DNA from: Mytilus edulis
Lineage: Eukaryota
NCBI RefSeq assembly: GCF_963676685.1
Contig: NC_092344.1
Location: 25,296,001 to 25,360,000 of the forward strand
Direction of reading: 5' to 3'
DNA length: 64,000 bases
Shown: positions 32,152-39,917 of the stretch, in pieces
Position numbering within the stretch: position 1 is the stretch's first letter
Layout: each line of letters begins with the position of its first letter
Translations under genes and position numbers: made by a program
Notes under the pieces: generated by a model
Seen by the model: the letters and a program-made list of their open reading frames with translations, nothing else
The model's database searches: none
What the model was told of the DNA's origin: nothing

Positions 32152-32553
32152 TTAACAGCATTGGAAGTTGTTGAACTGAGTGACATTTTTAGAAACAATT
32201 TTAGCAAATAAACAATTGGGTTCCCAATTCAAATGTTCGGTCTCTATGCAGTCATTCTTTCTCCATTGTTTTAGTGTTATATCACAGTAAAAACATGTAA
32301 CTCGATCGCCAACTCCTGTATAGAAAAAACCATTTTGTATTAATGCTTCAGCTTTCTGTTCCATTTGATGAGGCCAATGTTGAAAAGTTTGTTCCCGTGC
32401 GATGTAGTACAATTTAGTAGGATGTATAGGAGTAAATGTAAATAAGTCGTCATTAGAATTGAGTTGCATGTTTAGCTGTTTGATTCGGAATGATTGATGT
32501 TTTTTTTTCTTTCTTGGTATGTTACAACAGGGTCGATTACGTTCATTTAGCAT
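32152..32553 (-). CDS. Single-BIR-domain inhibitor-of-apoptosis-like protein
   Basis: [25 protein letters not shown]16-H-x6-C complete BIR zinc motif; no RING; 5' end lies at the rearranged junction, so the true start is uncertain. Confidence 0.9.
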
Positions 32554-32850
32554 TGAAAGTCAGCATTGAAAGTGAATTTAGGGTGGATTCTTTTGTTCTG
32601 GAACATATAGGATGAGTTCTTTTGTTCTGGAAAATATAAGGGTGGATTCTTTTGTTCTGGAAAATATAGGGTGGATTTGGGTGGATTCTTTTGTTCTGGA
32701 AAAAATTCTTTTGATCTGGAACAGGCGGTTTAAATATAGGGTGGATTTGGGTGGATTCTTTTGTTCTGGAACAGGCAGTTGAAATATAGGGTGGATTTGG
32801 GTGGATTCTTTTGTTCTGGAAAAAATTCTTTTGTTCTGGAACAGGTAGTT
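32549..32850. repeat. Scrambled iterated-motif array at the Polinton/Helitron junction
   Basis: About 8 copies of ttcttttgttctggaa interleaved with gggtggatt(tgggtggatt) and aatatag; agcattgaaagt duplicated at 32549-32573. Confidence 0.9.
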
Positions 32851-35800
32851 TATAACTACTTATAACACTGTATTCAGAAGTGAATCTTGCAAGACACAAT
32901 TTGATAAAGATATCAATGTGTGGTCTACCTTTATATCTATCAACAATATTGTTCATCCAAGTACTATTTTCATCTTCATCTTCATCTTCACTGTCACTAT
33001 TATGTCTTTTTCTTTTTGTAGACTTACAATGCTGTTGTTTCTCTATGTCTTTCAAAGGAATGCTCATTCTACATGGATTTTCACCAACAGGTATAAATTC
33101 TACTTTCCTTGAACACTCTCTTAATCTCAATCCAGTTACTCTAAACACTGCTTCCTGTGCACTTATCTCTCAATGGTGTAAGTATGAAGTTCCAACTTTT
33201 TGCATAGTCTGTTGAGCATTTAGATTTCCTTCTTCTGCTTCATTTTTAGTCTGTTGGAGGAGTAATCCTAGCTCTCGCTCAGCTTTACTTATGTAACTTA
33301 TAATGTATACAACACAGGAAAATGCATCCAAAATATATTGTATGTCCATATTTGCATCCCAAGCCCTCAAAAGATGTGGGTTATACTGATTGGTGTATAT
33401 TTCATTTGACTGACGTTTGAGAACTACTGTATTGCGATTGGTGATGAAACGATAATATGTTTCGAAGCTTTCTTGAGTTAGTCCTATTTTCTTGAAAATT
33501 TCAGAAACATCTAAGTTTTCACCTTCGTGCTTTTTTATAACTTCCCATAAGTCGGACAATATTCCCTTTGCTAAATCTTCATCGTCCTCTAAATCTTTAT
33601 CTGGATCACTTGGTTCTGAGATAAATGTTCTAGTTGAGGGAGGTCTTGGGAAATTAAAACGACATACTGTTCCCTTTTTCTTACATGATTTTGAATGTTT
33701 TTTGCTGTGTTGGTGTACTGCCATAACAATTTCATGCAATTCTTTGTCTTTCTTTTCATTTGGTATCTCACATGTTATGTACTTGTCAATAAAGGTAATA
33801 ACGTCATCAATATCATCTTCGCCAAATTTTGGAGCATTTTCTACCCAAAACAAACAATGTGTGTGGGGAGAACCTCTTTGTTGAAATTCAACTCGGTAAA
33901 AATAGTCGATTATTTTCCCTATTGGTTCAGCTTCTGACATGATAACATTGTTCAGAAACATATGAAATCTATGATCAAACATTCTTACTACTGTAACAGG
34001 ATTGCTACAAAGAACTTTACATTTTTCATCCCATGTCATATTTTCACTATTTCTCATGTCACCTTGCTGTTTTAAAATTGTGTTTACAATTTCTGACCAT
34101 CTGAAGTCTGCAGAAGAAAAAGAACAGAAGAATGTGGGGACTCCTAACTGTCTTATCATTGCAAATATATCTTTTTGTGAGCTTTGCCAATAGGGAGGAG
34201 TTCCACGAATAGGTTTTAAATATTTTATAGCTTCATCTTTCTTAAATAATTCTTTTAAGGTTTCCTTGTTGCAAAGCATTTCTCTTGTAACTTTCTTTCC
34301 TTCTTTCGAAAAAGGACATTGTTTTCTAAGAGATATCTGAACGTTTGAAATCACGCTATTGAGCTCTGTTAAATATTGACTGAAAAATATGTAGTTGGTA
34401 TCTCTAGCAAATCTATTTTCAACACTCATTAATCGAAGATTAAAGTATCTACCAATAGTAAGTTTTTCATCACGGTCTTCATCCGAAGTATTTTTACCCG
34501 ATGGAAAGTGCACAGGAAATGTTTTAGCTTCAATACCTGGTTCTTTTAGAACACTAAGAGGATTGTTATTTTCTGCTGGAGCTAAATTAAATACTTGATC
34601 AAAGCATAAATCTAAAGCCTCTTGTCCTATGTCAGCTGGTTGTAAACAAGTATCTAACTGAACACCACGTAACCTATCATCAATGTAGCTATATTGTTCA
34701 CTTTCTACTTCCCTTTCAATGCCTACTTTCGAAGATTTTGACATGTTTTCAAACGCATCTTTTTGTATTTCTTTATTCCCCATCATCTCAGTATCATTAG
34801 AATCAGAATCAGATTCATCATTCACTACTTGAACATCATTTACTTCAGGAATAGGGTTTATCCATTCGTCATTGACAGCGACATCTTTATACCACACTTT
34901 TTTATCCTTTAAATACACAAGTGCTTGCTCCAAATGGTTTGGTCTAACATATTGGTATTTGTCATAACCTTTGTAGTTGAGCTTTCTCTTCAGTTTAACC
35001 TTAAGTAAAAGACTTTCATCTTCTGATCGTGGTAGTATAGTAGTAACTTTTTTTCAAATCAGACGGCACACAAACTACAGGTCCATGAACACCTTTTTGT
35101 CCTCCTTTTGGTAAAGCCATTATCTTCATGAATGGAATGTTCAGGGCTATAAGTTGTTGCTCTATTGAATTTAGCTGTTTTAATTCTAATGGAACATCTT
35201 CAAGCATTAAACCATTTGAAAACGAATCTGCAGGTATTTTACCTTTCATCATTTTACGATGACAAGTATAACAAATCCATAGACTTGTTCTGCATGTTCC
35301 TTCAAAAGCACAATGAATATTGCAGTCATCTGTACATGTGTGTTTATATTTCTCTGTTGTGCATGATTCATATATAGAATTATCATAGGACCCCTTTTTA
35401 CAGATCAGAACCTGTTTTTCAAAGAACAGCCTCAAGCAGCAAGAACAAACACATTCTGGACCTTTCTCAACAGCATCTTTAAATTTTCTGATAACTTCAG
35501 TTATTTGTTTGTTTTCCTGTTTTAAATTTTCACGACGTGTTTCTGTTTGTTGTTTAACCTTACATTTATGTGACTCATCATTTGCATACTTCTGTATACT
35601 TGCTTGTTTCACATGTTCTTTGTGCTTTTCATCTTCCTTATACTTTTGTACACTTGCTTGTTTGACATGTGTCTTGTGTTGTTCATCTTCTTCATACTTA
35701 TATATACTAGCTCGTTTCAATTTTTCTCTGTACTTGTCATTTTCTTGATATTTCTGAATTCCAGATTCTTTCAAAGCATCTCTGTAATCTTTGTCCTCTC

Positions 35801-37480: not shown

Positions 37481-38114
37481 TTGTATTTCTAATACCTGAT
37501 CTACTAACTTTTACACAATCCTTAACCTTAGCTGTGTTTATTTTGTTGTTGCATTGTGCTTTGAATGAGGTTTTGTTCTTTATTTTACTTTGATATTGTT
37601 CCATTTGAACTTTATTCATAAGTACTGTTTCACTCTCGGTTTCTATACATGGACAATTGTGGTTTAGATCTAGTTGTTTGATCAAATTTTCATACTTCTT
37701 TTTAACAATCCTATTTTCATCCTGTTTTTCTGTCTGATTTTGATCCAGTTTTTCTGTCTGATTTTGAACAATTTTTTTATCCAGTTTTTCAATCCGATTT
37801 TTATCCAGTTTTTCAATCCTATTTTTATCCAGTTTTTTAACCTGATTCTGGTCTAGTTTTTCTGTCTGATTTTGTATTTCACTTTTATTCTGATATATAT
37901 TATCATCTTTATTTCTCTTGTATTGATAGTTTGTAGAGCTGACGCTCTGATCTAGTTTTTCAGTTTCATACTCATATAAATGTTCAATTCTATTCTCTAA
38001 TATATTTTCTATTTCATTTTCTAATATATTTTCTATTTCATTTTCTACTAATATAATTTCATCTTTTTCTACAGTATATTGACAGTGTAAAGATATAATG
38101 CTTTCATCTAAATC

Positions 38115-38510
38115 AAAATCATGACAGTTTTGAGAGATGACGCTCTGATCTAAATCATGACAGTTTTGAGAGATGACGCTCTGATCTAAATCATGACAGT
38201 TTTGAGAGATGACGCTCTGATCTAATTCATGACAGTTTTTAGAGATGACGCTCTGATCTAAATCATGACATTTTTGAGAGATGACGCTCTGATCTAAATC
38301 AAGACAGTTTTGAGAGATGACGCTCTGATCTAAATCATGACATTTTTGAGAGATGACGCTCTGATCTAAATCATGAGAGTTTTGAGAGATGACGCTCTGA
38401 TCTAAATCAAGACAGTTTTGAGAGATGGCGCTCTGATCTAAATCATGACATTTTTGAGAGATGACGCTCTGATCTAAATCATGACATTTTTGAGAGATGA
38501 CGCTCTGATC
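38115..38510 (-). repeat. Coding minisatellite, 11 x 36 bp (DQSVISQ[K/N]C[H/L]DL)
   Basis: gagagatgacgctctgatctaaatcatgaca repeated in frame. Confidence 0.95.
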
Positions 38511-39917
38511 TATATTTTGAAAGTTTAGAGAGGCGTTGCTCTGATGTTCACTATTTGATTGGTTGTTGCACTGACCATCCCTAAGCTTGTTGTTTTTTTC
38601 CTGTCTTTTTCTCATTCTTTCTTTATTTTCTTTCACCTTGGTACTTCTTGCCTTTTTACTTTTTTTTGGCATTATCTGAAAAAGAAAAAAAAAAAGAAAT
38701 ATTATTTAATATCTTATATTCTAGTTTCTCAAATAATAGAAACAAGATGTGTCGGAGTAAACTACATTTGCAATGTACATGTATCAGTTCCACAGCGCTG
38801 AATACTATACAGTTAAAATATTGCACCAACTCATACTTGTGCAATCAAAATTTGTATTCATATCAAAATCAGGAAAACCCTGAAAGTAAATTAGCTTCCT
38901 TAAAAAGTTTGTCTAGTTGTCATCATTTTTGCAGACTGACGTATATTCATAAAAGCATCATGTTTTTTTTATTGATTACTATAGTATGTGTTTAGATCAT
39001 TGTTGCATAGTGTACAGTGGCTTTGGTCATCAATTCTTTTTAACTTAGTACTTTATTTGGCCTTTTAACTTTTTTGGATTCGAGCGTCACTGAAGTCTTA
39101 ATTTGTAGAGGAAACACACGTCTGGCTTAAATACAAAATTTAATCCTGGTATCTATGATGAGTTTATTGTAGTTTGTCAACTTTATTGCAGTTGATCTAT
39201 GTTTGATAGTTTGTAATTTGTACTTGTTACAAATCTAATATAGTTATGTATTTTGTTGACAATAGACAACTGATGTTTCCATGTCTCTAATTCTCATATA
39301 CCTGAAAACTACAATTTGACAAATATTTAGCAAACAGTTATACACACGGCAGTAATCCATATTTTTTGTTTGTTTGGAGGTGCTTTTAACTTATTTAATT
39401 ATCTAGACTTTTAATCTAAATGTTAACATTTAAAGATGACAAAAAGTATAATTATGTTGATAGTCTTATGCTTGGTATCCAGTAGCAAATATTTCTTGCA
39501 TGGTCAGGAAGAATAATCATGCCAACAACAGTGTTGTTGCAGTTTCACAACTTATTAGAATTAAGAACTATAAGAATGTGTTGGTTTGATTGCCAATGAG
39601 ACATATAACCACCAAAACCCAAAAGACAAGGATGAAACAACTACATGATTGTACTGCGATCCACAAACAGCCCACTGCATAGTATGCTAAGAATTTCCCT
39701 GTGATAACAAATACCTTGCAATGATTCTATATATATATGTAATATAGAGACAACTTATTATCGATGATGCCGGAAAAGATCGCTCATAAAAAAAACCATA
39801 CCAGTACTTTTTGACGCAGTCATAAACAAGACATATGCATGACAAAAATTTTCAATCATAAGGCATCTATGTCAAGTATGTACAGGATATTTACACATTT
39901 TTTTTTTATCTTTATGT

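Follow-up and report, generated by a model that had tools for sequence, protein, structure and literature searches.

A 64,000-nt stretch of the Mytilus edulis genome (C1:25296001-25360000 of assembly G000, where C numbers denote contigs of this genome; hereafter the window), which is AT-rich animal DNA, contains a rolling-circle transposon that runs directly into a Polinton. The first-pass annotation described the former as a helicase-less Helitron and raised the question of whether the two form a chimeric element, which would offer a route for exchanging deubiquitinase (DUB) and inhibitor of apoptosis (IAP) genes, or whether one was inserted into the other and a deletion followed. We conclude that the locus is likely to be an ordinary one-off nesting and not a hybrid: a Polinton would have integrated into a decaying Helentron, and its far end would then have been deleted. 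Domains were called with Pfam profiles, proteins were compared with sibling regions by tblastn, and the window copy of the Helentron was compared with 19 sibling loci at 86-96% identity.

The interrupted Helentron and the Polinton terminus

The features on either side of the junction are the following.

38673..61000, minus strand: Helentron 5′ leader, long and containing nested repeats; probable boundary, from collinear patches shared with siblings A, C and F and a motif scan
32861..38672, minus strand: 5′ two-thirds of the Helentron (HLE2) RepHel polyprotein gene, with repeats, Herpes_teg_N, OTU, DUF6570 and Rep
32575..32860, minus strand: right terminal inverted repeat (TIR) of the Polinton, with short tandem repeats and its outer end AGTAGT at 32860

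Three minus-strand open reading frames (ORFs; 35016-38705, 33170-35053 and 32543-33169, stop to stop) had been read as a single Helitron polyprotein. This observation stands, because they align end to end as one gene with three sibling ORFs that contain no stop (2924-2999 aa). In the window, a frameshift where two of the ORFs overlap (35053-35019) and a stop at 33172 disrupt the gene, which ends at 32861. Pfam profiles detected Herpes_teg_N (herpes-type DUB), OTU, DUF6570 and Helitron_like_N (Rep, E=5.5e-33), and the HUH and tyrosine motifs of Rep are visible in the translation. This is the domain set of HLE2 subgroup b in the available portions of PMC11417382 and PMC4067079, the first of which describes OTU, Herpes_teg_N and DUF6570 as HLE2 domains and uses DUF6570 and Herpes_teg_N as markers. 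Unlike the family, the window copy is frameshifted, bears a stop and lacks its 3′ third. Sites resembling the 5′ subterminal inverted repeat (subTIR) lie at ~56.9-57.0 kb and 60.8-61.0 kb and give an approximate 5′ end; the motif also occurs in the upstream stretches of two of five siblings. The leader further contains, at 43075-43553, a truncated copy of an abundant repeat with ~46-bp inverted ends, resembling a miniature inverted-repeat transposable element (MITE).

The window Helentron is cut at 32861 and is not naturally short. A genome search with 33400-32830 returned 40 matches, and none of the other 39 passes query position 540, which corresponds to window 32861. Homology to the window ends at 32861-32865 in all 19 sibling loci, which read on into a helicase; beyond the cut point the next letters are identical in the nine siblings inspected. 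In a 96% identical sibling, the half missing from the window contains PIF1 (3.9e-27) and Exo_endo_phos (5.4e-9). All 17 siblings examined cover 888-892 of the 892 aa of this half, and a 3′ hairpin lies 3.4-3.9 kb past the cut point in 17 of 17. A single open frame of 2924-3181 codons is retained by five of the seven Helentron copies taken at length. The siblings agree with HLE2, as far as it is described in the available portions of PMC11417382 and PMC4067079, in possessing Pif1 and Exo_endo_phos and non-autonomous HINE derivatives whose ends are shared, and apparently also in having a subTIR and a 3′ hairpin within T-rich sequence. When the C-terminal half of a sibling (Pif1/endonuclease) was compared by tblastn with the window and the 60 kb to its left, no match was obtained, in agreement with the earlier report that the helicase is absent.

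The base right after the end of Helentron homology is the outermost base of a Polinton: AGTAGT begins at 32860 on the minus strand. The stretch 32860-32575 is the inverted counterpart of the left TIR of sibling Polintons and is joined to different flanks elsewhere, so its tandem repeats represent the right TIR. The right TIR had been reported as missing, but it is present, and the left end is the one that has been lost. The terminus pattern occurs at five sites in the genome, the other four of which have unrelated flanks. It corresponds to the left end of sibling Polintons at C11:31.62, C11:34.86 and C11:57.21 Mb, whose arms match the window from 14555 on with substitution divergences of 1.6, 1.8 and 5.2%, respectively. 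A control Polinton at C10 ~11.18 Mb has perfect 339-bp TIRs with the same ends and a 6-bp target-site duplication (TSD). The C-terminal 105 aa of ORF 32543-33169 represent in-frame TIR repeats and not Helentron sequence, and their frame differs from that of the IAP gene. In other sequencing runs (four DNA runs from four studies), the TIR end meets different flanks at 32857-32866, and the Helentron passes 32861 into its helicase half in all four runs. In the available portions of PMC8097293, (AGT)2//(ACT)2 is the most frequent end motif of vertebrate Mavericks; a literature search found nothing on Polinton TIRs with AGTAGT.

The distal breakpoint and the probable order of events

Two further features meet at the other end of the Polinton.

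14555..20500, strand not assigned: left arm of the Polinton, 96-98% identical to two siblings, cut at 14555
12905..14554, minus strand: non-autonomous units of Helentron type (HINE), whose 3′ hairpins lie at ~13830 and ~12934

The Polinton runs 18.3 kb to 14555 and lacks the left TIR and the first 1.9-2.1 kb of its siblings. In a search for the left TIR, its motifs were found only at 32575-32860 within 124 kb (the window and 60 kb to its left). At 14555 the arm is joined, with ~1 nt of microhomology, to the central part of a HINE-type unit that lies on the strand of the Helentron. In 13 of the 17 sibling Helentrons a unit of this kind comes directly after the 3′ hairpin, and the hairpin motif was found in none of 46 background 10-kb stretches, a non-random set chosen around Polintons and left of the window. 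The sequence at 12905..14554 is likely to be the remnant tail of the interrupted Helentron. The 3′ hairpin, reported earlier as absent, has same-strand counterparts of Helentron type beyond the other end of the Polinton. Adjacent to the tail, 11762-12910 holds a truncated copy of a 1747-bp unit, which is repeated in a long tandem array at C5 ~6.48-6.55 Mb.

Because the Polinton terminus is base-exact, its insertion into the RepHel gene would have been made by the integrase, at a time when the older Helentron would already have been broken. One later deletion of at least 5.5 kb, with ~1 nt of microhomology at the breakpoint, would have removed the left TIR and the second copy of the target site along with the half encoding helicase and endonuclease and the beginning of the tail. 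A single deletion at 14555 would explain the loss of both the left TIR and the helicase half. A nested insertion followed by deletion had been the simplest explanation at first sight, and this scenario is supported, but its geometry had been misread: at the junction the Polinton ends cleanly, and the site of the deletion is 14555, at a distance of 18 kb. Nested transposon insertions generally exhibit the same base-exact interruption and subsequent decay, with no difference in kind, and nesting in Helitron-like elements is noted in the available part of PMC11417382. With no helicase, a single TIR and a polB gene interrupted by stops, neither element is likely to move alone.

The relative ages were estimated from the other sequencing runs. 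At least 11 sites in 32861-33800 differ from all contigs of the four runs, among the 40 rows listed, whereas no substitutions were found over 31600-32668 in five pieces from the four DNA runs of four studies, among the pieces listed. These private letters on the Helentron side, as opposed to the substitution-free Polinton end, suggest that the Helentron is the older and the Polinton the younger element. We infer that the Helentron copy was probably decaying before the young Polinton landed. The right end of the Polinton is uniform in the four runs yet has other flanks there, and no close copy of it is present elsewhere in G000. In the 14 DNA data sets with the best matches, 0.72-0.77 of the sampled words are present, which is about the Polinton share of the query. 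These comparisons suggest a young Polinton family that is polymorphic among individuals.

Several observations weigh against this reconstruction. The right end is identical across the four studies while polB has three stops, and the left end of the window Polinton is gone, so there is no second target-site copy to compare. Tail units of the same kind are also located at 55-62 kb and can therefore arrive independently. When an empty site was sought, the repeat cut at ~12905 was not resumed between 40 kb and 74 kb, nor was the MITE cut at 43075 resumed leftward. The position 32860/32861 was spanned by none of the 32 pieces listed for the four DNA runs and none of those listed for 15 DNA contigs, nor by any of the seven reads obtained from one RNA run sampled at ~6%, so the join is documented by this assembly only. 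All seven RNA reads lie on the TIR side and carry a non-window letter at 32846; none crosses from the Helentron into the IAP gene, as read-through would require. The private letters of the Helentron half are missing from the DNA runs, which probably lack this allele, and the same probably holds for the RNA runs.

The absence of a spanning contig or read among the pieces listed would also be expected if the assembly had wrongly joined a Helentron copy to the end of a Polinton. A misjoin is nevertheless very unlikely, because the two sides meet precisely at the outermost base of the element and no repeat is common to both sides of 32860/32861; the runs are probably devoid of the allele, and the filter applied to them discards some records. 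A different origin is conceivable for a genuine join, as DDE transposases can make adjacent deletions. A Polinton lying to the left of an intact Helentron could have joined its right TIR into the Helentron by means of the integrase, deleting the DNA between them including the helicase half, while its left end was lost separately beside an independent HINE. This course of events would also yield a base-exact TIR junction without a TSD, and it is consistent with the negative empty-site result and with the identity of the right end in four other runs where the flanks differ. However, it requires two independent losses and the chance presence of a same-strand tail unit at the left breakpoint, whereas such units trail most sibling Helentrons and their hairpin did not occur in the background stretches. 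We consider it unlikely.

The possibility raised by the first-pass annotation, a mobile chimera in which the IAP-integrase-capsid block is attached to Rep and the Helentron promoter, all of them moving as a unit and exchanging DUB and IAP genes, is extremely improbable. The genes are indeed co-directional, as had been observed, with BIR, rve and Peptidase_C5 matches downstream of the polyprotein on the same strand; the Rep motifs are readable, and Helentron-type ends still flank the whole block. On the other hand, none of the 39 other matches crosses the junction, only one of the five terminus sites adjoins a Helentron, and the junction pattern gave one exact genome match and one unrelated match with two mismatches. 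The same junction was thus searched for genome-wide and found at a single locus. Rep lies behind the frameshift, and there is no fused reading frame or fusion protein. The IAP has no match in seven Helentron regions or their upstream stretches, and the Helentron protein matches none of 12 IAP loci and one of nine Polinton regions, where the match is a separate nested Helitron1. The proposed exchange route is not needed for either gene set. The DUBs belong to Helentrons by origin and the IAP to Polintons: AGTAGT is located 738-1203 bp upstream of the IAP in all seven regions with a close IAP relative, none of which has a Helentron protein match. As two pairs among these regions resemble duplicates, they represent about five independent places. 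A literature search for a chimeric Helitron-Polinton with HUH and capsid returned a single match. Because Helentron-type ends bracket the block (57-61 kb on one side, 13.8 and 12.9 kb on the other) and the genome contains intact RepHel siblings, it is also conceivable, but highly improbable, that rolling-circle transposition in trans could copy the 44-48 kb unit with the one-ended Polinton as cargo, and that transcription of the Helentron could continue across the TIR into the IAP-integrase-capsid block. Neither a second genomic copy of the unit nor, among the seven reads, any read-through RNA was found.

Gene content of the Polinton

Besides the right TIR and the left arm, the Polinton comprises the following genes.

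32152..32469, minus strand: IAP with a single BIR; ATG at 32469, in a frame other than that of the Helentron ORF
31643..32056, minus strand: conserved 137-aa Polinton ORF, with tblastn matches to four other Polinton regions
30284..31430, minus strand: integrase (rve and chromodomain; rve 6.8e-9, Pfam)
27521..29352, minus strand: putative major capsid gene and adenovirus-type protease
22614..27449, plus strand: zinc-finger region and protein-primed polB (DNA_pol_B_2 3.4e-10, Pfam)
20537..21200, plus strand: packaging ATPase (Pox_A32-like, E=0.0018, under the curated cut-off), apparently frameshifted

The putative capsid has no Pfam match and was named by its position and by 31-64% matches to homologues in three other Polinton regions, and the protease matches Peptidase_C5 under the curated cut-off (E=0.00037). 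Three stops lie in frame in the polB gene (23559, 24711 and 25506), and two GT-AG introns are predicted (26102-26402 and 26846-27093), which would split conserved motifs. The AGTAGT terminus, TIR, integrase, protein-primed polB, ATPase, protease and putative capsid are shared with the Polinton/Maverick elements described in the available portions of PMC8097293. According to the same portions, most vertebrate Maverick copies are degraded fossils, and the window Polinton is likewise degraded; intact vertebrate Mavericks are intronless, whereas the window polB would contain two introns of spliceosomal type. The window Polinton also differs from Mavericks in the single TIR left to it and in having the IAP as a terminal accessory gene. 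Among the matches listed, literature searches found nothing clearly on topic for Polinton introns and nothing on topic for IAP/BIR in Polintons or Mavericks.

In related Polintons (L024, L025 and L028-L030), a further short ORF, missing from the window copy, separates the IAP from the terminus. The left arm at 14555-19300 is long and non-coding in appearance, is common to the siblings, and contains short exon-like stretches on the minus strand. Nesting in the reverse direction was seen in the same genome, where a 9.55-kb Helitron1 (TC...CTAG ends, A/T target) resides in a sibling Polinton at C11 ~31.629-31.639 Mb, at the equivalent of window 22303. Outside both elements, a 340-aa ORF at 6446-7468 on the plus strand has a weak FkbM-type methyltransferase match (E=0.0014).

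A candidate ribozyme in sibling Helentrons

A near-invariant GC-rich element is located ~110-130 nt past the ORF stop, in the 3′ untranslated region (3′UTR), in all close sibling Helentrons searched and occurs at 24 places. The reference copy is L040:2795-2880 (C14 ~11.657 Mb); the element is deleted from the window copy. It can be laid out with a 7-bp P1, a 7-nt L3, GG as P1.1, a long P4 and, ahead of P2, C-N-A-A, which fits the consensus of the double pseudoknot of ribozymes like that of hepatitis delta virus (HDV). In this layout 97% of the cells pair, but only one pair, in P4, has changes on both sides, and P3 consists of 2 bp. A descriptor of HDV type, written after the sequence of the element had been seen, gave no matches in 15 more distant Helentron stretches, and Rfam returned nothing above threshold for the element. 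From its sequence, the chances are perhaps even that this candidate is an HDV-like self-cleaving ribozyme in a DNA transposon. The sibling Helentrons would thereby add a candidate HDV-like RNA motif after the ORF to the features of HLE2. HDV-like ribozymes are described from retrotransposons in the available part of PMC4035085, and the sole match of a literature search for an HDV-like ribozyme and Helitron concerns R2 elements.

As found, the locus is a fossil nesting of two known types of transposon, which is of use mainly in ordering their activity. Proof that the block moves as cargo of the Helentron would provide a concrete route for rolling-circle elements to gain viral gene modules. The more interesting lead than the junction is the possible self-cleaving RNA in the 3′UTR of a DNA transposon.

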